From the NCBI RefSeq assembly GCF_036365525.1, contig NC_090376.1, positions 54,783,317 to 54,847,316 on the forward strand: a stretch of 64,000 nt of DNA, given 5' to 3'. The notes under the pieces were generated by a model, which was not told where the DNA came from, did no database searches, and saw only the letters and a list, made by a program, of their open reading frames with translations. A program made the translations under genes and the position numbers. Origin of the DNA: Heterodontus francisci (taxonomy: Eukaryota). Positions 7,055-29,379 of this stretch are shown piece after piece. Position 1 is the first letter of the stretch. Each line of letters begins with the position of its first letter.

Positions 7055-8479
7055 CTGCAAAATGAGAACAAATACAAAATAGGTAGGTTTGCTTTGCTGG
7101 CTGAAGTTAAATGAATGACTTATTTTTCACTGACACCAAGTGGAAAGATGCTAACATACATCAACTGAACGGAATTTGTAAAATGTTATAGTAGAGGTTT
7201 AAATGATAAAACAGCATTAAATAAATATTAATATTGAAGGAATTTTGAAGATAAAAATCTTCAAGGTAGCTTTCACCAATAAATCATAAAAACCTTTGTA
7301 GAATTTCAACTTATAACCTTGGAGTTTTAGAAAAACAGTTGTTTTACTGAACACATGAATGAAAGCAATGAAAGAGCTTCACATTACTGAATGCCACCCA
7401 GAAAAGAAAACAGGGAGAAAAAAAAATCAACTGGCTTGTCACTCTTGATGATCCAGCAATTCTTGTGGGAAGAGCATGCACATACCTTAGGTGGGGAAAG
7501 GATCAGGCTTTGCTGTGATATCCTGTGGGAAAACAGCACTCTGACACTCACTGTCAATGCACACACAAATAATAGCCACTTGGATAAAGTACCAGAAATT
7601 AACCATTGCACCTATAAATATTTTTTTAAATGGACTCGAAGCCTACGGGAAAGCAGTGGAGGGGACAAAAGTTGGCAGATCTTTCCAGGCTTATGAAAAA
7701 CATATGTTGGCCTAAGGAATAAATACCACAATGATATTAACTCTATCCACTTGGATGTGACCGGTGTGGTAGCAGCTTGAAAATTGAAGAGATGTACTTA
7801 ACAGCCTGTTCCCACCGCTGCCATTTCGGTTGGGATTTCTGAATGGGTCATCCAGACATCCATTTGTTTCATGCTGGAGCCTAATTCCAATATCCTGGTT
7901 GGTGTTCTATATCATACAAAGGACCCAGACACAATTTTGAGGTAACAATGGGCGAAGCCTGCATCACGCATACCTTACCCATTGATCCATTGATACAGGA
8001 CGTCGAGCAGCCTTGTCAGTGGTCCATAAAGGGGCAACTGCAGGCTGCTTCTGAACAGTTTTTTTTTTAAATTTGTGGGGTCAGGAGCAGCATTAATGCT
8101 GGCACATCCAACCTTTCTCACAGATAAAATTTCCAGCTGAACTCTGTCAGAGCCAACAGAAATCTCACCCCCTGACCACCAAGCTGCTCACTGGGAATAT
8201 GGAAATGATACTTGGGCCTCACATCGAATACACCGCCCACAAAATGCCCACCCAGGATGTAAAATCGACATAGATGTATCATATTTTAATAATGGTGGTT
8301 GCTTTCTGGCAAATTGTAAATTTGGGGAGGAGTTAAGGGATGAAATTACAGGTGCCAATTGTTGTTTAGTAAGTAAGAGTGGTGACGAGAACTAGACACA
8401 TTATCTGATATATATCCAAGTGAAGAGTGTGAAGACACGAAAACAGCAAATCGAGGGAGTCAGGATAAGATCTGAGGAC

Positions 8480-8815
8480 TGTGGAAAGCCTTATGTGGTG
8501 TACCTAGGCTTCCAAAATAGTATTTCACAAAGTTCCACACAAGGGGCTGAGTTCAGAATGGTGGTAATTCAGGATACATCTCGGGAATGGATAAGAAGTT
8601 AGCTGAAGGGTAAAATAAAGGTAGTTATGTCAAGGTGAGGAGAATTGCTTAGTTGAGTGTCACAATGATTGCTGTTGACACCACTGCTGTCGCTATTTTA
8701 CACTGAGCAGGATTCTGAAACTTTAAAGGGTTGTTGATTGAATTAAAGAAAGCATAAACACTGACGGACCAGTTGGACTAAATGGCCTGCTTCTGTGCTG
8801 TAAATCCTATGAACT
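8480..8815 (+). mobile_element. Highly degraded CR1 fragments
   Basis: Remnants of VVYLDFQKAFDKVPH and GVPQGSVL coding sequence, plus a CR1 3' tail (ggactaaatggcctgcttctgtgctgtaaatcctatg). Confidence 0.55.
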
Positions 8816-9639
8816 TTCAATGGCTGAAAGTGTATATAAAGAACATGTATATGATTTTGCTCTAAATAGTGAACATTAAAACTTTTGGCTTTAAGATTTG
8901 CTGTTGAACAGCAGATCATCAGGAAAGAGATTATTAAAATAGGTTTTTTTTTTTAGGGGACTGGGAATAATACCAATGTTGAGATTGAATTGTTTCAGAT
9001 AGATTAAAATGTAACATTGTCTATGACAAGGGCACATTGCAGGTTGCAGGGCAATTTATCTAATAATTACAATTTGCTACACCTCAGTGGGAACCACTAC
9101 TAGTGGTTGTTTCTATTAGTTTAAAAACACTGTTAACCCATCATTAGTACTTCCTGCCTAAATTTAAATAAGCTTAAATATGTACTATGTCTTTAAAAGA
9201 GTACAGAAATACAATTTACATCTGTAAAATTCTGTCTTCAGATTATTAATTGAAAGTTGCTAGTCCTTTTTATTCAGCCTCCATGCCCCATCTTGGTTAA
9301 ATTAATTCCCAGAGACGTGCCCCTATACACATACTACTATGTAAATTGGTTCATTAGCAAAGGGGTCAGATTAAAAAATTGTACATCTTCATATCAACTT
9401 CATTTTGAGATGGCACAAAAATGAAAACATGCAGTCAAGAACTTCAAATAAATTTCCCTTTTTCACTAGCTCTGTATATGTTGGACATTATATTTTCTCT
9501 TTATTATACCATATTTTCATCATTTTCCTCTAACAATAAGAGCCCCCACTTGCTCAAAGCACCAAGATTGCTTTGCCAAAATCCTGAATGCGATCCTTTG
9601 TGACTGTGCATTATCCTGCCTTGTACACCTCAAATTTGT

Positions 9640-10265
9640 CATAGTATTTGATGAAGTTGACTAAACTTTTCTCATCCACTGTCCAAAAAAAGTGGTTTCA
9701 TACTTAGCTGTTCAAAGCCAGCCAGCACATCACCAGCAGTAGCTTTCTTCCCTGCACCATCAATTATGATGTTCCTTAAATGATCTATCTTTGGACTCCT
9801 CCACTGTATGCTCCCCCTGGGCAACATGGTCTGCTAGCATGGGGTCAGCTTCCACAAGCATGTAGGGGATGCCCAAATCCCACCACTTACCTCAAACCTA
9901 CAATCACCTCAGCTGTGTCAGATTGCCTGCCCAGCATCGTCATAGATGAATTAAAATTAGTTCCAAATAAACAAATTGGGAAGATCAAAGCTAGTCTTTG
10001 GCTCGCATCATAAGAATGGCTCCCTTGTCACTAACTCTATCCCCCTCCCCGGTCACTAGTTCAGGCAGAAATAGGCTGCAAAAATGGTATCCTGTTCGAC
10101 CTAGAAATAAGCTTCAAGCCCCATGCCTTACTGGACGCCATGGACAAATATTTCCATCCCTGCAACACCGCTTTCTTCCAAATATACCTCAACTTCACTG
10201 TCACTTATCCATATTTCTGTCATCTCTAGATTCTAATGTCTTCATTGCTGGACCACCATTTCCAC
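9640..10265 (+). mobile_element. Degraded L2-clade LINE RT fragment
   Basis: Decayed YMLPLG..HGVSFH.YADD..LSDCL..WM..NFLQLN.GKT-type sequence at 9805-10000. Confidence 0.6.
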
Positions 10266-10274
10266 ATCACAAAA

Positions 10275-11392
10275 TCATCAAATGATACAGCACGGGGGGC
10301 TGGTATTCAGTACACTGTGCCTGCTCTTTACACGATCCATGTAATTTTCTTCCCTTTGAGTATTTATTCAATTCCCTTTTGAAAGTTATTATTGAATCTG
10401 CTTCTACCAGCCTTCCATTCCAGATTATAACAACTGTGTGAAAAAATTTTTACAACATGTCACCTCTGGTTCTTTTGCCAATCACTTTAAATCTGTGTCC
10501 TCTGATTACGGTCCTTTCTACCACTGGAAACAGTTTCTCCTTATTTACTCTGTCAAAACCATTCATGATTTTGAACACTTCTATCAAAATTTCTCTTGAC
10601 CTTCCCTGCTCTAGGGAGAAAACCCTCTGTTTCACAAGATCGTTACAGTGCAGAAGGAGGCCATTCGGCCCATCATGTCTTCACTGGTTCTCCGAAAGAG
10701 CAATTCCCTCAGTTCCACTCCCCTGCCTTCTCCTCATAACCCTGCACATTCTTCCTTTTCATATAACTGTCTAATTCCCTTTTGAATGCTTCAATTGAAC
10801 CCGCCTCCACCTCGTTCTCAGGCAGCACATTCCATACCTTAACCATTCGCTGCATGAAAAAGTTTTTCTTCATGCCACTTTTGCTTTTCTTATCAAATAT
10901 TTTAAATCTGTGCCCTCTCATTCTCGATCCTTTCAAGAGTGGGAACAGTTTCTCTCTATCTGCTCTGTCCAAACCCCTCATGCTTTTGAATACCTCTATC
11001 AAATCACCTCTCAGCCTTCTTTTCTCCAAGGAAAACAGTCCTAACTTCTCCAATCTATCTTCATAACTGAAATTCCTCATCCCTGGAACCATTCTTGTGA
11101 ATCTCTTCTGTACTCTCTCCAATGCCTTCTTGTCTTTCCTCAAGTGCGTCGCCCAGAACTGGAGGCAATACTCCAGCTGAGGCCAAACTAGTGTCTTATA
11201 CAAGTTTCACCAGTCTCGTCACATAACTGAAGTCCCTCATCCCTGCTCCCATCCTAGTAAATCTCCTCTACACCCTCTCTAAAGCCTTGACATCCTTTCT
11301 AACATGTGGTGTCCAGAGTTGAACACAGTATCCAGCTGAGGCCTAAGCAGCAATTTAAAAAGATTTGGCATGGCCTCCTTTCTTGTATCCTT
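10275..11392 (-). mobile_element. CR1 3' fragment with a younger CR1 3' fragment (10636-11203) nested inside, 7-bp TSD GTTTCAC
   Basis: ORFs 10450-10635 and 10709-11203 are CR1 RT C-termini. GTTTCAC occurs at 10629-10635 and 11204-11210. Confidence 0.9.
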
Positions 11393-11394
11393 TG

Positions 11395-11760
11395 TGGGGG
11401 GAATTTTAATCCCCCAAAAACAGGTGAGTTTGGTTTGTGTGGGAGCTTAAAATGCTAAAAATCTGAAACATGAACACAACCTGCCTCAAAAATGCCCAGT
11501 TCCAGATTTAACGGAAGTGGGATGAGGGGCAGGTGACCAATCTGCTTGCAGCAAGTGGGTTTGTCATTTAAATATTTTAAAAAGGCTGCGTGCTTTCATT
11601 TTAACAGGGCTCCGGAAACCCAGGTGAGAAGGGCTGAATCCTTTACAGGATTGTCTGTGGGCCAAGAGGAATAGGCATGTAACCTCCAGGCCCAACAGGC
11701 TATCTCGTTAAATCACCACCCACCTCCCTGACCTATTTCCAGGTTTCCCGACATCACAAC
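11395..11760 (+). repeat. Non-autonomous DNA-transposon-like repeat (GGGGnAATTTTAA terminus)
   Basis: Related sequence in opposite orientation at ~63270-63633, ending ttaaaattacccc. Confidence 0.45.
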
Positions 11761-11829
11761 AGCAACCCATTCCTACCCCACCTCCAAACTAATATACAGC
11801 CCTCTGCCTCTGCTAATAAAGATTTTTTT

Positions 11830-12487
11830 GAGAGGGCGAGCGGGGGGGGAAGAAAGGGTGAGAGGGCGAGTGAGGGAGGGAGAGGGGGCTGGAGCGAGGA
11901 AGGGGGAGGGCGAGCGAGAGAGAGAGGGCGAGCGAGAGAGAGAGGGCGAGCGAGAGAGAGAGGGCGAGCGAGAGAGAGAGGGCGAGCGAGAGAGAGAGGG
12001 CGAGCGAGAGAGAGAGGGCGAGCGAGAGAGAGAGGGCGAGCGAGAGAGAGAGGGCGAGCGAGAGAGAGAGGGCGAGCGAGAGAGAGAGGGCGAGCGAGAG
12101 AGAGAGGGCGAGCGAGAGAGAGAGGGCGAGCGAGAGAGAGAGGGCGAGCGAGAGAGGGCGAGCGAGAGAGAGAGGGCGAGCGAGAGAGAGAGGGCGAGCG
12201 AGAGAGAGAGGGCGAGCGAGAGAGAGAGGGCGAGCGAGAGAGAGAGGGCGAGCGAGAGAGAGAGGGCGAGCGAGAGAGAGAGGGCGAGCGAGCGAGAGAG
12301 GGCGAGCGAGAGAGAGAGGGCGAGCGAGGGAGCGAGGGCGAGCGAGGGAGCGAGAGAGGGCGAGCGAGCGAGGGAGCGAGAGAGGGCGAGCGAGCGAGGG
12401 AGCGAGAGAGGGCGAGCGAGCGAGGGAGCGAGAGAGGGCGAGCGAGCGAGGGAGCGAGAGAGGGCGAGCGAGCGAGGGAAGAGAGGG
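11830..12487. repeat. GA/GC-rich compound minisatellite (18-bp GGGCGAGCGAGAGAGAGA grading into a 26-bp unit)
   Basis: Directly visible tandem array, with no T on the plus strand from ~11891 onward. It explains the spurious SLARP/EREG ORFs. Confidence 0.97.
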
Positions 12488-14478
12488 CCAGAACTGCAAG
12501 CAATACTCCAGCTGTGGCCTAACCAGCACTCTATACAGCTCCAGCATCACAATCCTGCTTTTGTACTCTATACCTCGGCCAATAAAGGAATGCAATCCAT
12601 ATGCCTTCTTCACTACTATCTACCTGACCTGCCACCTTCAGGGACCTGTGGACATGCAGTCCAAATTCTCTCTATCATCTTCTACACCTCTCAATATCCT
12701 CCCGTTTATTGTATATTCCCTCGCTTTATTTGCCCTCCCCAAATGCATCACCTCACATTTCTTAGGATTGAATTCCATTTGCCACTTTTCCACCCACTCA
12801 ACCAAACGATTGATATCATTCTGGAGTTCACGACTCTCCTCCTCACTATTAACTACACAGCCAATATTTGTGTCGTCAGCAAGTTTCCCAATCATGCCTC
12901 CCACATTTAAGTACAAATCATTAATATATACCACAAACAGCAAGGGATCCAACATTGAGCCCTGTGGAACACCACTGGAAACTGCTTTTCATTCACAAAA
13001 ACATCCGTCGACTACTACCCTTTGTTTCCCGTCACTGAGCCAATTCTGGATCCAACCTGCCACCTTCCCCTGTATCCCATGGGCTTTCATTTTACTGACC
13101 AGTCTGCCATGCGGGTCCGTGTCAAATACCTTACTAAAATCCATATAAACCACATCCACTGCACTACCCTCCTTGTTACTTCCTCACAAAACTCAATCAA
13201 GTTAGTAAGACATGACCTTCCCTTAACAAATCCATGCTGACAATCCCTAATTAATCCATGCCTTCTACGTGACAGTTTATCCTGTCCCTCAGAATAGATT
13301 CTAATAGTTTATCCACCACCGAGGTCAGACTGACTGGCCTATAATTACCTGGCTTATCCTTCGCCCCCTTTTTAAACAATGGTACAACGTTCGCAGACCT
13401 CCAATCATCTGGTACCTCGCCTGTATCTAGTGATTTGAAGATGATCCTCAGCACATCTGCTATTTCCTCCCTGGCTTCCTTTAACAGCCTGGGATGCAAA
13501 ACATCCAGTCCTGGTGATTTATTCACTTTCAGGGATGTCAGACCCTCAAGCACTTTCTCTCTCATTATGCTTATCTCATTTTTCACACTCCTCCTCTTTA
13601 ACTACAATTTCTGCATCAACCTTCTCCTCTGTGAAGACAGAGACAAAAAACTCATTAAGAAGCCTGCCCACATCTTCTGCATCCACGCATAAGTTCTCCT
13701 GTACATCACTGATAGACCCTACCCTTTCTTTAGTTATCCTCTTACTCTTAATGTACTGATAAAACATCTTCAGGTTTTCCTTGATTTTACCTGCTAATCA
13801 TTTTTCATGTCCTCTGTTTGCTTTTCTAATTTCCTTTTTTACTTCACCCCTGCACTTTCTATACTCCTCTATGTTTTTTAAAATATTAAGATTATTGTGA
13901 TCATAAGCTTTTTTTTTGCTTTATTTAGAGATACAGCAATGAAACAGGCCCTTTGGCCCACCAAGTCTGTGCCGACCAACAACCACCCATTTATACTAAT
14001 CCTACATGAATCCCATATTCCCTACCACATCCACTACATTCTCCTACCTACACTAGGGGCAATTTAAAATGGCCAATTTACCTATCAACCTGCAAGTCTT
14101 TGTCTGTGGGAGGAAACTGGAGCACCCGGCGGTCACAGGGAGGACTTGCAAACTCTGCACAGGCAGTACCCAGAACTGAACCCGGGTCGCTGGAGCTGTG
14201 AGGCTGCAGTGCTAACCACTGCGCCGCCCAAATAACTTACCCTGTAAGCTTCTAGATAACCAGGGAGCTCTAGATTTGGCAGTATCGCCCTTTATCTTTG
14301 TGAGGACATGCCTACACTGTGCCTGTAGAATCTTGCTCTTGAATGCCTCCCTCTGGTTTGCCACTGATTTTCCTTCAAGTCATTGTACCCAGTCCACCTT
14401 TGCCAGGTTACCTCTCAGTTTTGTAAAATTTGCCTTCCCCCAATTTAGAACCTTTGCTCCTGCTTTATCTTTGTCCTT
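12488..14478 (-). mobile_element. CR1 LINE, degraded, 3' end lost at the minisatellite, SINE inserted
   Basis: ORFs 13576-13767, 13251-13586 and 12638-12955 (KLADDT, NYRPVSLTS). Ends abruptly at RPQLEYCLQFW where the array begins. Confidence 0.93.
13921..14229 (-). mobile_element. HE1-like SINE
   Basis: Same head, body and tail as 2949-3297. Confidence 0.9.
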
Positions 14479-15042
14479 TTATCAAACCTAACAATTTAGA
14501 GCTCAGCAAGAACAAGGGGCAGGAGGAAATCCCCAATGACTCGTAGGGGCTAAAAAGCAATATATCAATGACTACCTCCCCAGAAATAAGAACTGCCAAT
14601 GTGCCAGAACCTGAATGGTTAATGCCATGTATCGTAGAAGCAGTAGATAAGGGGTTAAAGCTTGTACAAACAGGGAACCTTGCCACATGAGTAGCAGAAA
14701 TTTGCATACTATAAGCTTCACCAACAAATCACATGGTCCTGGAGATTAACATAAAGTAGTACAAACTAGTGTGAGAGAAACTACTTCCCCATTTGGCAAT
14801 ACGCAAGAAAAGAAATGTAATTTTTGATGGTACCTCATCCAGAAGGATGATAAAATTTAAACTTGAACTTCAAATGGCTGTTACAAGCAATGCCAGCTGT
14901 AGCACTTGTAAGACGGAAGAGTGAATAAAATGAATGCGTACCATGGTGTGACCCCAAAATTTCTTAATGTTTCTTTTTTCCATCTTTCTAAACCTATAAA
15001 AATGAAGTCTAAGGAATTTCATTTTTTCCCTTTTGGGGGAGG

Positions 15043-15855
15043 TGTCACGCACACCAGATGTGCGATGATACAAACGATGGACTAACTCTGAAGAGAGTTA
15101 TAAAAAACTGACTTTGTCTTTAAAAAAATGAAACTTGATTTTTTTCTAAAAAGTGAACAATGATCTCAAAATGGCCCCTTTTGTGTATTCCAACTGTCTA
15201 ACAAAGACAAAGGACAAATCCTCAAAGGTAGAAGGTGTCAATTACATCCCAACCTAAAAATATTCCAGAATTGAATGTCTTCCTCTGAAACAAAGAAGGT
15301 GTGAGGTGGCCACATCCTGGGTCATGATGCAATCACCATGCGAAGTAGAGGAGCAGGAGGTGGGAGGTAATACTGCTTTGCCTTAAAAAAAAATCCTAGA
15401 CAGAGACAGATCTAGCAGCTTGTGTTCCAGCAAGCCAGAAGGCACATGCCCTACTGCAGAATCCAGCAGTGACCCATCCTCTTCAATCAATAGGGAAATC
15501 TACAATCATCTCAGGCCTGCACCCATCGAGAACTTGATTTACAAGAGAATCCAACAGGTTTATCATGACCACACACTGCCCACTAAAAGTCACGTTCCTT
15601 TTTTTCCTTCCCTATCTGTCTCCTCTTGCATGTGTGTGCTGGAGCAAATGCATGAGTGGATGTGGTTGCGACAATTTCAGGATAAGGCATATTGATCAAT
15701 AAACAACTGATTTTCTACTAAGAAAAGCTGTCGCTGTCTGTTCATTTGAAAAATAAAACACCAAGGGGTTAAACCCTTATCACAGAATACTTGCTGCGGT
15801 CAGGTGGGGAGTTGAACAGTGGGAACCACCCACATCGCACCACATGGTCGTAACA
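15043..15855. mobile_element. Solo LTR (family A)
   Basis: TGTCACG...CGTAACA termini, flanks GAGG/GTGG (4-bp TSD, one mismatch). Homologous to 34560-36872 and 27487-28164. Confidence 0.85.
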
Positions 15856-16365
15856 GTGGAGATGGGGTAGCTGATCAGTCATGGTCTTACTGGATGGCAG
15901 AGTGGGCTCGAATTGCTGAATGGTCTACTCCTGCTCCTATTGCTTATATTATGAGTCTTTTGATTGTAGTTTATTTTCAAACTTTCTAATTTTTTGAAGT
16001 ATTAAAATTTTAATAAGTGTAATATACCATTTGAAGATGTACTCAAGATGAGAAAAAAATCCAAACCACACCATAAGCTGTCTCAATATGCAGCTAAAAC
16101 ACTGTTGTCCAATGCAAATTACTGCCTTGCTGCACATATGGCTGTCAATACCATTGTAGTCATATGCATATTTTTATTGGAAAATATCCTACATATACTC
16201 ACACAATATAGGTACTTGTATATGTGCTTAACAATGACTACTGAGATCATATGACCACAACATTATTTATTACTGATTTTTAATTTACTAACCAGAAATG
16301 TAATTAACTACCTCTGGATTCCAACTTAGCCACATCTAACATGGGCAACACTGAACTAAAAGAAT

Positions 16366-16764
16366 TTTTTTTTATTTGCTTGTGGATGTGGGCATCGCAG
16401 GCTAAGCCAGCATTTGTTGCCCATCCCTAGTTGCCCTTGAACTGAGTGGCTTGCTAGACCATTTCAGCAGGCATTTTAAGAGTCAACCACATTGCTGAGG
16501 GTCTGGGGTCACAAGTAGGCCAAACCAGGTAAGGACGGCAAATTTCCTTCCCTCAAGGACATTAGTGAACCAGATGGGTTTTTACAGCAATCGACAATGG
16601 TTTCATGTTCATCATTAGACTAGCTGTTTAATTCCAGATTTTTATTAATTGAACTCAAATTTCACCATCAGCCATGGCGGGATTCGAACCCATGCCCCCA
16701 GAGCATTAGCCTGGGTTCTGGATTACTAATCCAGTGACATTACCACTACGGCACCGCCTCCCCC
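16366..16764 (-). mobile_element. tRNA-derived SINE (second family) with CR1-Zenon-like 3' tail
   Basis: A/B-box head (GGTGCCGTAGTGGTAATG...GGTTCGAATCCC). The tail AAGGGCAACTAGGGATGGGCAACAAATGCTGGC...A-rich end matches the LINE end at 45168. Confidence 0.88.
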
Positions 16765-17027
16765 GTAAACCTAAGTGTACTTGGAAAAACTCTCACATTT
16801 TGCAAGCCAAGCAAGAAAATATTGAATCTAATTATTCGAAATTGTAGATAATTGCACCATGTCCACTCAACAATTTAATAAGACGTTTTGATCTCTTCAA
16901 AAACATTGCCCCTATGCCAACTTCCAGAATAGCTGCTGTTGAAAGTATCACTTACATTACAGGAATCAAAGAGGTCACCAAGTGGGAATGTCTCAATTCT
17001 AATCATAAATAAATCATAATTACATAA

Positions 17028-17301
17028 TGCCTGTCATGCATGACCTTAGAACGTCCCAACGCACTTGGCAGTCAATGAACTATTTCCTGAAATAATATTT
17101 ATTGTTGTAATGTGAGCAAGCGTGTCAGCCAAAGTGTGCACAACAAAGGTCGCACAAACAGCCATGAGATCAATCGCCACATACTCTATTTTAATGATCT
17201 TTGTTGAATAATAAACATATATTGGAGATCTCCCTTGGTCTTCGAATAGTGCCATGGAATTTTCACGTTCACCTGAAAGGGCAAAGCAGGGCCTCGGTTT
17301 T
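17028..17301 (-). mobile_element. Deu-domain SINE fragment (SacSINE1/AmnSINE1-like)
   Basis: Minus strand AAAACCGAGGCCCTG...CAGGTGAACGTGAAAATTCCATGGCACTATTCGAAG, the Deu core. Homologous to 60278-60608. Confidence 0.7.
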
Positions 17302-17536
17302 ATATGCTGGTGTCAATGGCCCTGCTAATTTTCTTGGCATAATCCTCCTCCTCTTCTAAAGCTTCAGCTCACCTAAGCAACGTGACATGGGATCTGGCAA
17401 CAGTCAATGGTTTCATGTTCCTTTGTTGCACATTACACAATAATCACCATGATTACCATACTTTCATCAGACACTACCCAGGCCCATCCCGGTACTAGGC
17501 CAGTGCTGGCTATGCTGTTGTCCGGTCGTGTCTCAC

Positions 17537-17751
17537 CTCTGTAATCGGGCGGCAGTGCTCAGTAGACGTCGGTCCGATATCCCGCTGCTGATCGCACCGG
17601 CTCCACCAAGTAGAAACAGCCCGTCCTCTCCTCGGCTTCCGCTCCAGGAAATCCTTGGTCCCCAGTTCCTAAAACAATCTTGGAATCGCAACCGCTTTAA
17701 GGCCACATTTTGGGAAGTCAGCAGAACTCACCTAATGGCCGTGGCTGCCAT
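17537..17751 (-). CDS. FDX1: FDX1 exon 1 coding part (mitochondrial presequence) with an in-frame TGA at 17728-17730
   Basis: ATG at 17751 (gacATGG): MAATAIR*VLLTSQNVALKRLRFQDCFRNWGPRISWSGSRGEDGLFLLGGAGAISSGISDRRLLSTAARLQ(S). Donor AG|gtgaga is phase 2 and joins exon 2 in frame to give RLQSSKDK, like human ARSSSEDK. Confidence 0.88.
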
Positions 17752-17990
17752 GTCAGTATCTGGGACTTTGACTCAGTTTAAAACTTGTTTCCGCTTCTTC
17801 CACGGAACCCGCTGGCCACTACCGCTGCCTCGCGCCGACCTACCTGCGCTAACGTCAGCAGCCGCGCGCCGCAAGGAGTGCCCGAGCCGGCGCCAGAGGG
17901 GCGGGCCATGCGCGTTTCCAGGGCAACTGGAAGACCTGACTTTCCAGCTTCGTGCTGAGGTAACTGCGCATTTACTTTTCAAATCGACAG
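17752..17990. promoter_or_regulatory. CpG-island, probably bidirectional promoter of FDX1
   Basis: CpG-dense. GC box GGGGCGGGCC (17898-17907), CRE-like TAACGTCA (17850-17857), RFX X-box GTTTCCAGGGCAAC (17914-17927), and a plus-strand donor GAG|GTAACT at 17959. Confidence 0.75.
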
Positions 17991-19174
17991 GGCAGGGGGA
18001 AATATTACAGGATAGTCTGGAGCCCGACATTTGGATCAAATCTGCTGCCTTGCTGATGGGTTGTTGCATGTTTAGAATTAGCCTGGTAATAATGGGCTAA
18101 ATTTATGCACTGAGTGTGGTCAATAAGGTTGGTGAGATGCAGAAGCAGATAGCCATGTGGAAATATGATGTTGTGCAGATAATGGAGACCTGGCTCAAAA
18201 AACCTGGCAGGACTGGATACTACATACCCCTGGATACAGGAAAAATAGGGAAGGAAAGAAAGGAGGAGGGGTAGCAGTATTAAGGAGAACATTACAGTGC
18301 TGGAGAGAGAGGATGTAATTGAGCGGTCACGGACAGAATCTATTTGGTTAGAAGTAGAAACAGTAGAGGTACCATTACATTGCTGGGTGTATTCTAGAGG
18401 CAACCAACTAGTGGGAAAGATATAGAGGAACAAATTTGCAAGGAAATTACAGAGATGTACAAGAATTATAGTGTGGTTATAATGGGGTACTTTAATTATC
18501 ATAATTATAGACCGTAATAGTGTAAAGAGCAAAGAGGGGCAAAAGTTTCTAGGGGTGTGTTCAGGAGAATTTTCTACATCAGTATATTTCCAGGCCAACA
18601 AGGAAGGAGGCATTGCTGGATCTGGTTTTGGGGAATGGGGAACATTTAGAGGGCAGTGATCATAGCACCATAAGGTTTAGGTCGCTATGGAAAATGACAA
18701 GGAGCAATCAAGAGTAAACATAATTAATTGGGGGAGGGCCAACTTCAATGGGGTGAGAACAGATCTACCCAAATAAATTGGAATCAAAGATAGGCAGGCA
18801 AAACTGCAATAGGCTGCCTTTAAAGAGGAGATAGTTTGGGTAGAGTCAAGGTACATTCCCAGGAGAGGCAAAGGTAGGGCAAACATATCCAGAACTCCCT
18901 GGATGATGAAAAGGATAGAGTGTAAGATGAAGCAGAAAAAGGGTGCATATGACAGATGTCAGGTGGATAGTACAATTGAGAACCAGGCTAAATATAGAAA
19001 GTTCAGAAGGGAAGTGAAAAACCGAATCAGAGAAGTAAAGAGAGAGTATGAGAAAAGACTGGCAGCTAATATAAAAGGGAATCCGAAAGGAGGAGTGGGG
19101 CCGATTAGGGACATAAAAGGGAATTTATGCATGGGGACAAGGCTGAGGTTCCAATGAATACTTTGGATCTGTCT

Positions 19175-22100
19175 TTTTGGTTCTGGGTACTGCCTGTGCG
19201 GAGTTTGCAAGTTCTCCCTGTGACCGCATGGGTTTCCTCCCACAGCCAAAGACTTGCAGGTTGATAAGTAAATTGGCCATTGTAAATTTCCCCGAGTGTA
19301 CAAAGAACAAAGAAAATTACAGCACAGGAACAGGCCCTTCGGCCCTCCAAGCCTGCGCCGATCCAGATCCTCTCTCTAAACATGTCACCTATTTTCTAAG
19401 GTTCTGTATCTGTTTTCTTCCTGCCCATTCATGTATCTGTCTAGATACATCTTAAAAGACTCCATCGTGCCCGCATCTACCACCTCCGCTGGCAATGCGT
19501 TCCAGGTGCCCACCACCCTCTGCGTAAAGAACTTTCCACGCATATCCCCCCTAAACTTTTCCCCTTTCACTTTGAACTCGTGTCCTCTAGTAATTGAAAC
19601 CCCCACTCTGGGAAAAAGCCTCATGCTATCCACCCTGTCTATACCTCTCATGATTTTGTACACCTCAATCAGGTCCCCCCTCAACCTCCGTCTTTCTAAT
19701 GAAAATAATCCTAATCTACTCAACCTCTCTTCATAGCTAGCGCCCTCCATACCAGGCAACATCCTGGTGAACCTCCTCTGCACCCTCTCCAAAGCATCCA
19801 CATCCTTTTGATAATGTGGCGACCAGAACTGTACGCAGTATTCCAAATGTGGCCGAACCAAAGTCCTATACAACTGTAACATGACCTGCCAACTCTTGTA
19901 CTCAATGCCCCGTCCGATGAAGGAAAGCATGCCGTATGCCTTCTTGACCACTCTATTTACCTGCATTGCCACCTTCAGGGAACAGTGGACCTGAACACCC
20001 AAATCTCTCTGGACATCAATTTTCCCCAGGACTTTTCCATTTACTGTATAGTTCACTCTTGAATTGGATCTTCCAAAATGCATCACCTCGCATTTGCCCT
20101 GATTGAACTCCATCTGCCATTTCTCTGCCCAACTCTCCAATCTATCTATATTCTGCTGTATTCTCTGACAGTCCCCTTCACTATCTGCTACTCCACCAAT
20201 CTTAGTGTCGTCTGCAAACTTGCTAATCAGTCCACCTATACTTTCCTCCAAATCATTAATGTATATCACAAACAACAGTGGTCCCAGCACGGATCCCTGT
20301 GGAACACCACTGGTCACACGTCTCCATTTTGAGAAACTCCCTTCCACTGCTACTCTCTGTCTCCTGTTGCCCAGCCAGTTCTTTATCCATCTAGCTAGTA
20401 CACCTTGGACCCCAAGCGCCTTCACTTTCTCCATCAGCCTGCCATGGGGAACCTTATCAAATGCCTTACTGAAGTCCATGTATATGACATCTACAGCCCT
20501 TCCCTCATCAATCAACTTTGTCACTTCCTCAAAGAATTCTATTAAGTTGGTTAGACATGACCTTCCCTGCACAAAACCATGTTGCCTATCACTGATGAGC
20601 CCATTTTCTTCCAAATGGGAATAGATCCTATCCCTCAGTATCTTCTCCAGCAGCTTCCCTACCACTGACGTCAGGCTCACCGGTCTATAATTACCTGGAT
20701 TATCCCTGCTACCCTTCTTAAGCAAGGGGACAACATTAGCAATTCTCCAGTCCTCCGGGACCTCACCCGTGTTTAAGGATGCTGCAAAGATATCTGTTAA
20801 GGCCCCAGCTATTTCCTCTCTCGCTTCCCTCAGTAACCTGGGATAGATCCCATCCGGACCTGGGGACTTGTCCACCTTAATGCCCTTTAGAATACCCAAC
20901 ACTTCCTCCCTCCTTATGCCGACTTGACCTAGAGTAATCAAACATCTGTTCCTAACCTCAACATCCGTCATGTCCCTCTCCTCGGTGAATACCGATGCAA
21001 AGTACTCGTTTAGAATCTCACCCATTTTCTCTGAGTCCAAGCATAACATTCCTCCTTTGTCCTTTAGTGGGTCAATCCTTTCTCTAGTTACCCTCTTTCG
21101 CCTTATATATGAATAAAAGGCTTTGGGATTTTCCTTAACCCTGTTTGCTAAAGATATTTCATGACCCCTTTTAGCCCTCTTAATTCCTCGTTTCAGATTG
21201 GTCCTACATTCCCGATATTCTTTCAAAGCTTCGTCTTTCATCAGCCGCCTAGACCTTATGTATGCTTCCTTTTTCCTCTTAGCTAGTCTCACAATTTCAC
21301 CTGTCATCCATGGTTCCCTAATCTTGCCATTTCTATCCCTCATTTTCACAGGAACATGTCTCTCCTGCACGCTAATCAACCTCTCTTTAAAAGCCTCCCA
21401 CATATCACATGTGGATTTACCTTCAAACAGCTGCTCCCAATCTACATTTCCCAGCTCCTGCCGAATTTTGGTATAGTTGGCCTTCCCCCAATTTAGCACT
21501 CTTCCTTTAGGACCACTCTCGTCTTTGTCCATGAGTATTCTAAAACTTACGGAATTGTGATCACTATTCCCAAAGTAGTCCCCTACTGAAACGTCAACCA
21601 CCTGGCCCGGCTCATTTCCCAACACCAGGTCCAGTATGGCCCCTTCCCGAGTTGGACTATTTACATACTGCTCTAGAAAACCCTCCTGGATGCTCCTTAC
21701 AAATTCTGCTCCATCTGGACCTCTAACACTAAGCGAATCCCAGTCAATGTTGGGAAAATTAAAATCTCCTATCACCACCACCCTGTTGCTCCTACATCTT
21801 TCCATAATCTGTTTACATATTTGTACCTCTATCTCACGCTCGCTGTTGGGAGGCCTGTAGTACAGCCCCAACATTGTTACCGCACCCTTCCTATTTCTGA
21901 GTTCTGTCCATATTGCCTCACTGCTCGAGTCCTCCATAGTGCCCTCCTTCAGCACAGCTGTGATATCCTCTTTGACCAGTAATGCAACTCCTCCACCCCT
22001 TTTACCTCCCTCTCTATCCCGCCTGAAGCATCGATATCCTGGGATATTTAGTTGCCAATCATGCCCTTCCCTCAACCAAGTCTCAGTAATAGCAATAACA

Positions 22101-28164: not shown

Positions 28165-29379
28165 ATTCCACACTGATTGACGTTACAATCTGTCTACTCT
28201 GCATACTTCTAGCAGGCAATCTTGCGTGCATTCTAACGCCCTCACCAACATAGCATCCAGTGTGGCTAGCAGCAGAAGTGTGGCCGCATGCTACGGACAC
28301 CATTTTGGAGGCAAAACAACACTTGTCGCGCCAAATATCTGAACACTACAGAGCCAAATTTCGTGGCAAATATATCTTGATAGGTCCCAGAAGATCTCCC
28401 ATGGTTTTGCTCATGGTGAGTTTGGCCTCCCATGACTAAGTACATGGGCCCTTTTGAATTATGTTCGGAGGATTTTGTTCTACCACCTGAAGTGATCTCA
28501 AAGTTGCATTTTTTTTTAAATCTAAAAGCCTGTTTAAAAGCATTGAGCTGAAAATAGACTGCAGCTTGCTTAAATTGCACTATGTACTAACTTTTTTATG
28601 CACTGATCACTTGCTGTGAATTAATTTGCAGTGACTGAATAAATCAAATTTCTGCCATATGCAAGATTTTTAATAATAGATGCAGATATTCTTATGAACT
28701 GAAGCAAGGTAAATTTTCAAACTGCCACAGATAGAGCTATCGATAGTTCATTGGATTGATGGATGGATGGATGGTACTTTTGGCACTGGAAGCAGTTAAA
28801 GGCAATATGTGGACTAGTAGTTATAACCTTGCCCTAAAATGTAGATTTAGGAAGTTTTTGCTAAATTTTGGTTATGGCAATGAAACTTAATTCTTGTTGT
28901 AGAAAACAGACTATAAAGCTCTTTTTGATGCGAATATAAGTAACTTTCTGGATAGTGGGGTTGAAATTGTAAAATCGAGTTGATAAGATAAATACAAGTA
29001 TAATGTTAATGTACATGATCTTCTTTGTTAGGATATCATGGAACATTGGAGGACTCCTCCAGGAGGTCAAGCATTTCTCTCACCGAAAAGGAGGTGAAAG
29101 CAGAGTTCACTAAGCTGTTTCAAGTACCTCCCAGCAACCAGTTACCATGGTATAATTAGATGCCGAGAAACAGATCATCTGCCCCTCCCTCACATACACA
29201 GGAAAGTGAATGCCACAATGTTCCAATTGAGCAATTTTGCATGATTTCTCAAAATAAAGAAAATAAAAAATCGGGACACTATTGGACCAGTCAGTAGATG
29301 ATGAAAAATGTATGGTTGTGTAATAAAATATCAGGTTACTGCAGAATATTTAAGCATAGCACACTTAAAAGTGACTGCT

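Follow-up and report, generated by a model that had tools for sequence, protein, structure and literature searches.

The assembled sequence of the ferredoxin gene FDX1 very probably carries a recent nonsense allele in the heterozygous state: a C-to-T change at a CpG, at position 17730 of the window (the whole stretch of 64,000 nucleotides analysed here), has replaced an arginine codon by TGA, and the assembly shows the mutant haplotype. The DNA reads T, RNA filed under the same sample label reads C, and the gene has no other lesion. A heterozygous null, listed among the alternatives in an earlier note that had favoured the rescue of a nonsense mutation by the gain of a 63-nt intron, is on these grounds the best reading. 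The likelihoods that we attach to this and to all other readings are judgements and not the outcome of a computation.

Judged by its sequence, the minus-strand gene of the window is orthologous to FDX1 and intact apart from one lesion (Table 1). From the ATG at 17751 the frame reads MAATAIR and then TGA at 17730-17728, beyond which there is no further stop up to the exon-1 donor after 17537; an in-frame stop lies eight codons 5' of the ATG, and no second in-frame ATG was found within exon 1. These coordinates and motifs, together with the GTG at 17706 and the interval of 63 nt, were correct in the earlier note when re-read in the window. The exon-1 product aligns with the N-termini of shark orthologues in the region of the presequence, its coding part being 69% identical over 72 aligned positions to the adrenodoxin of Heptranchias perlo (P0001), to which exon 2 is 88% and exon 4 is 95% identical. 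The best relatives of exon 2 are nine shark adrenodoxins (88-90% identity, against 63% to a second copy on C15, discussed below), and a 100% match to it is absent among the 94 protein matches listed. All four cysteines of the Fe-S cluster are carried by exons 3 and 4 together, as C-x5-C-x2-C in the former and SRLGCQ in the latter. Pfam matches to single exons are weak (Fer2 in exon 3 with an E-value of 0.035, below the cut-off; none for exons 2 and 4), and the full-length orthologue P0001 passes the Pfam ferredoxin test. With vertebrate FDX1, or adrenodoxin (Pfam PF00111), the gene shares its four coding exons, a phase-2 first intron and the cluster motif C-x5-C-x2-C...C; from other shark FDX1 genes it differs in the TGA at codon 8 of the assembled haplotype, where eight of nine orthologues have Arg and P0002 has Gly.

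About 190 kb upstream of FDX1 there is a divergently oriented gene of the ERM family (ERM_C matches were found at C6:54994703 and C15:40609373), the arrangement that RDX has beside human FDX1. Exon 1 has one match in the 6.0 Gb assembly and is single-copy to the extent that unassembled copies did not escape the search; a second exon-1 locus as the source of the C-bearing transcripts was rejected on this count. We also rejected a pseudogene, given that exons 2-4 are open with GT-AG ends, that spliced transcripts exist and that exon 1 is single-copy; no lesion was found elsewhere in exons 1-4. A search with the exon-1 peptide returned no protein at E<=0.001 among 847 candidates of 112-2000 residues and one of 34-111 residues, a weak negative, as known orthologues were missed as well.

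Table 1. Features of the FDX1 locus (window positions unless a contig is given)
Feature	Position	Strand or location	Remarks
FDX1 exon 1, coding part	17537..17751	-	215 nt, phase 2; putative mitochondrial presequence, broken at codon 8 in the assembly
5' untranslated part, exon 1	17752..17864	-	extent is the reach of the X5 contig; CpG-rich
Codon 8, variant base 17730 (G000:C6:54801046)	17728..17730	-	TGA in the assembly and 3/3 DNA contigs; CGA (Arg) in 4/4 transcript contigs
Donor-like site TAG GTGAGT, T allele	17726..17734	-	phase 2, as the real donor; no use seen
Proposed 63-nt intron	17669..17731	-	21 codons retained in transcript contigs of 4/4 runs, coding in shark orthologues
Out-of-frame ATG overlapping in-frame GTG	17704..17708	-	ATG 17708, three codons then stop; GTG 17706
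Intron 1	7055..17536	-	10,482 nt, GT-AG; sole intron seen removed from exon 1
FDX1 exon 2	7054-6930	-	125 nt, open; continues in phase 2 as SSKDKV
FDX1 exon 3	G000:C6:54749600-54749725	outside window, same contig	open, GT-AG ends
FDX1 exon 4	G000:C6:54745088-54745198	outside window, same contig	open, GT-AG ends

The T at 17730 is present in the sequenced DNA and is no slip of the consensus, because three separately assembled DNA runs of sample S1 (X1, X2 and X3, with contig depths of 11.4, 8.1 and 5) read T. Each run gives one contig over 16770-18060 without a letter differing from the assembly, of which they are not independent, S1 being possibly its own source sample; C was read at 17730 in none of the three. 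Eight of the 21 listed runs were compared, with X4, X7, X8, X10, X12-X16 and X18-X21 left out; X4 also contains all sampled words and may be X1 filed twice, and X17, a capture library from another individual, has no reads over the region. At the variant base every DNA contig of X1-X3 reads T, and the base-call error that the earlier note had listed as an alternative is unlikely. In a broader form, T could stem from an error that the sequencing makes systematically, or from a somatic clone limited to the tissue that gave the DNA, as all the DNA evidence comes from one sample, possibly from one library and from the assembly's source. However, the substitution lies outside any homopolymer, and the three separately assembled runs agree on T with no other difference in 1291 bases; an artefact or somatic clone is therefore very unlikely.

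The transcripts read otherwise. Four runs were compared, X5 and X6 from organism A under the label S1, and X9 and X11 from organism B, a related species. None is on record as RNA (the label is a guess for X5, X6 and X9, and X11 is unlabelled), and we take them to derive from mRNA because splicing at 17537 joins their contigs to exon 2: in all four, a contig ends at 17537 with a loose end that carries the first letters of exon 2, running for 125 letters, the length of that exon, in X6 and X11. At 17730 all four carry G on the + strand, so that codon 8 is CGA and encodes Arg, and a T-bearing FDX1 transcript was seen in none of their contigs. In X5 and X6 this base is the sole difference from the assembly over 328 nt, while the organism B transcripts show ten differences, all of them transitions.

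Heterozygosity is the likely reconciliation of a T seen in DNA with a C seen in RNA alone, the attribution of both to one animal being taken from the sample label. Simplified contigs retain the better-covered allele, and when the majority allele wins in a simulation, the probability that all three DNA contigs of a heterozygote carry T is 0.124, or about one in eight. X1-X3 show no other difference over the 1291 bases compared, hence the region offers no local control in the form of a heterozygous site that flips between runs. Both points weigh against heterozygosity, as does the lack of T in the transcript contigs, but the alternatives are costlier still. T-bearing transcripts that escape decay may make up as much as half of the total and be collapsed in the contigs. 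Logan contigs are described as lossy after graph simplification, alternate alleles being kept in the unitigs (bioRxiv 10.1101/2024.07.30.605881).

Another way to reconcile the two letters is that the DNA donor was homozygous for T and that the RNA under the same label came from another, CGA animal, with the T/T animal surviving through the FDX1-like gene on C15 or through some other rescue. All three DNA contigs do read T, the paralogue (G000:C15:40691190-40714017) has open exons 2-4 with canonical splice ends, and in zebrafish fdx1b mRNA is reported to have partly rescued fdx1 morphants, at 47% (PMC4769370). On the other hand, this account calls for two unlikely things at once, mislabelled RNA and a viable homozygous null, and six queries against the 20 kb upstream did not reveal a first exon for the paralogue. 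Mice do not survive the loss of Fdx1: homozygotes die at E10.5-13.5 and heterozygotes are described as developing normally and being fertile (PMC10846857), and the zebrafish report describes a severe effect of fdx1 knockdown, with gastrulation impaired despite the presence of fdx1b (PMC4769370). A homozygous donor paired with foreign RNA is decidedly unlikely.

A homozygous T animal could also yield C-bearing mRNA if the transcript were edited from U to C at this one site, restoring Arg. The same sample label gives T in DNA (3/3) and C in RNA (2/2) with no genomic C seen, and the removal of stop codons by such editing is described for the organelles of ferns and hornworts (PMC12548569). However, about one heterozygote in eight would look just like this, the site is a CpG whose ancestral letter is C, and the papers listed include no vertebrate nuclear mRNA system; editing is extremely improbable. 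To our knowledge, no U-to-C editing system exists for vertebrate nuclear mRNA. Antisense editing by ADAR, which would be A-to-G on the + strand, was rejected: the spliced RNA is from the minus strand, and the change is the only one over 328 nt.

Comparison with relatives bears on how the allele arose. Codon 8 was ancestrally CGA, as the earlier note had supposed, with Arg in eight of nine orthologues and CGA in every transcript run, and its proposal of a C-to-T change at a CpG also holds, the stretch being CpG-rich (observed/expected 0.91 over 17500-17950 versus 0.31 across the window) and C the ancestral letter. We infer deamination because the site is CpG-rich and because two further CpG transitions, at 17646 and 17740, separate organisms A and B in exon 1. 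The 21 codons from 17731 to 17669 are encoded in all nine shark orthologues, at 25-60% identity versus 37-77% for the rest of the presequence, and organism B transcripts retain the segment; by this alignment it is an old coding sequence and not an old intron, the latter being a possibility that the earlier note had allowed for. The presequence tolerates insertions and deletions among sharks. Codon 36 (17644-17646, minus strand) shows a second CpG transition in the presequence, where the assembly and the transcripts of organism A have TGG (Trp) and organism B has CGG (Arg); here organism A has the same letter in DNA and RNA.

The substitution has a second consequence. It creates AG/GTGAGT, with its GT at 17731-17730, and together with TTTTAG/G, whose AG ends at 17669, this bounds 63 nt in frame. 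Against the U1 consensus, the new donor scores seven exact and two wobble matches of nine and the real donor six and one, so that the claim of a consensus-like donor made by C-to-T is borne out. A TGA with AGG before it and GT after it is found in five of the 2472 TGA triplets of the window. The flanking Arg and Val codons are ancestral, and organism B has them unchanged; any C-to-T change at this site would therefore create the donor automatically, as a by-product for which no selection is needed. An in-frame AG is likewise to be expected, as the frame is kept by 7/15 of the internal AGs further down exon 1.

It is on these signals that the proposed intron gain was built, and a weaker form of it holds that the T allele is polymorphic and that its transcripts are partly rescued by removing the 63 nt, an incipient intronization. 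The new donor beats the real one in its match to U1, and the segment is short, a multiple of three and holds the stop, traits that Catania and Lynch are cited as predicting (PMC2586383); a presequence open to indels and contigs that can drop minor junctions would suit it as well. The likeness to intronization as set out in that work extends to latent splice signals: the segment is coding in relatives and has GT-AG ends around a stop. The case departs from it (PMC2586383) in that no spliced product was seen, that C in the RNA shows the species not to be fixed for the allele, and that the internal spacing falls under the human minimum. Of the branch-point motifs, the best stands at nt 34-35 from the donor and the sole strict one at nt 14, distances below a limit that is human and may not be the shark's: 46 nt is given as the minimal productive distance from donor to branch point in human introns, with lengths under 50 nt critical (PMC11291888). 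At 63 nt the segment is also shorter than the roughly 76 nt put forward as the likely vertebrate minimal intron (PMC9438311). Moreover, an AAG stands 10 nt before the proposed acceptor, and removal of the segment would strip three basic residues from the conserved beginning of the presequence, sparing the acidic part. We do not hold the pyrimidine count against the intron, since the cryptic acceptor, with 10/17, equals the lowest of the real acceptors (13, 12 and 10 of 17).

Removal from the mRNA is what defines intronization, and on this point the idea fails. In all four runs the contigs are unbroken across 17669-17731, at depths of 203 in X5, 210 in X6, and 140 and 23 in X9 and X11, and at 17732 and 17668 none of them is joined, gapped or broken. 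A minor branch can be seen in these graphs when it is long: a retained-intron branch at about 5-6% of depth broke the graphs of X5 and X6 at 17537-17566. Short junction paths are removed from contig graphs more readily than long branches. The contigs thus exclude efficient splicing of a common allele and not trace splicing, and the junction 17732^17668, named earlier as the sign of the intron, is absent from the contigs of all four runs, where a minor junction could be hidden. With the segment kept in mature mRNA contigs, all of which read C, and a branch-point spacing that is too short by human standards, the gain of an intron is not supported, and partial rescue of the T allele through the same 63 nt is highly improbable. 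As a separate observation, X5 and X6 each contain a contig over 17350-17566, at a depth of about 11 (5-6% of exon depth), that runs from exon 1 into intron 1 and represents unspliced precursor or DNA in the library.

Initiation at another codon offers no better escape from the stop. The in-frame GTG at 17706, suggested earlier as a near-cognate start, is unlikely to serve as one: the out-of-frame ATG at 17708 overlaps it, and organism B has GCG in its place. Initiation from an upstream ATG was rejected too, since the one at 17909 opens a different frame, which closes ahead of the main ATG. On the minus strand that frame runs for 43 codons to about 17778 with a donor-like GTAGGT inside; it starts where neither the X5 nor the X6 contig reaches (their ends are at 17864 and 17829) and may be absent from the usual mRNA.

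For the heterozygous nonsense allele, the sequence of events would be as follows. Deamination of the CpG turned the CGA of Arg8 into TGA on one chromosome, likely recently. The CGA allele gives normal mRNA, in which the whole of exon 1 is observed joined to exon 2 at 17537, and from which full-length ferredoxin would be made for the mitochondrion. For the T allele a null is predicted, with translation ending after seven residues; re-initiation would be useless, because no in-frame ATG follows until exon 3, past three of the four Fe-S cysteines. The earlier note overlooked that the new donor is in phase 2 like the real one, so that pairing with the exon-2 acceptor keeps the frame. If used at all, the new donor would most likely join exon 2 in this way, deleting 65 codons and with them nearly the whole presequence, and the product would be a ferredoxin without a targeting signal and no rescue. 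A loose end at 17732, as left by such a splice, was found in none of the four transcript runs.

The FDX1 TGA is a new instance of a common type of variant, CGA-to-TGA at a CpG being the commonest class of nonsense change. With heterozygous variants of this kind it shares a CpG transition in an Arg codon, the lack of any other lesion and the presence of wild-type transcript; unlike them, it also makes a consensus-like, in-phase 5' splice site. Its stop stands, in addition, only seven codons from the start, a position from which decay may be escaped, in line with the account for mammals that a stop very near the start can evade it (PMC3273812). No paper on this allele or on shark FDX1 was found among those listed in an open-access search.

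Two neighbouring subjects deserve mention. The FDX1-like gene on C15 lies about 80 kb from another ERM-family gene, and its exon 2 is 73% identical to bird adrenodoxin-like proteins versus 61% to shark FDX1; it probably arose as a duplicate of the FDX1b type in the genome doublings at the beginning of vertebrate history. Beside FDX1 itself, the contig in X9 (organism B) reaches 17960 and then continues in letters identical to those of the window at 29033 on the + strand, where a GAG/GTAACT donor stands at about 17960 and a TTAG acceptor before 29033. This suggests a divergent spliced transcript on the + strand from the CpG-rich promoter of FDX1, with an intron of about 11 kb, seen in this one run and not in X5 or X6; its second exon holds short frames only and is probably non-coding. 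By eye, the stretches on either side of the promoter, at about 16380-16760 and 18060-20500, resemble a short interspersed repeat and decayed remnants of a LINE-like reverse transcriptase.

On the best reading, what the assembly has captured is one recessive null allele in one animal, which in itself matters little. The assembled haplotype nevertheless misrepresents the FDX1 of the species, and an annotation based on it could wrongly call the loss of the gene or invent an intron. Were DNA to prove homozygous for T in an animal whose RNA reads C, this would point to an unrecognised editing activity in vertebrates and be a major finding. If, instead, the heterozygous allele were common, it would provide a natural test both of whether the C15 paralogue buffers the loss of FDX1 and of a new in-phase donor in the first exon.
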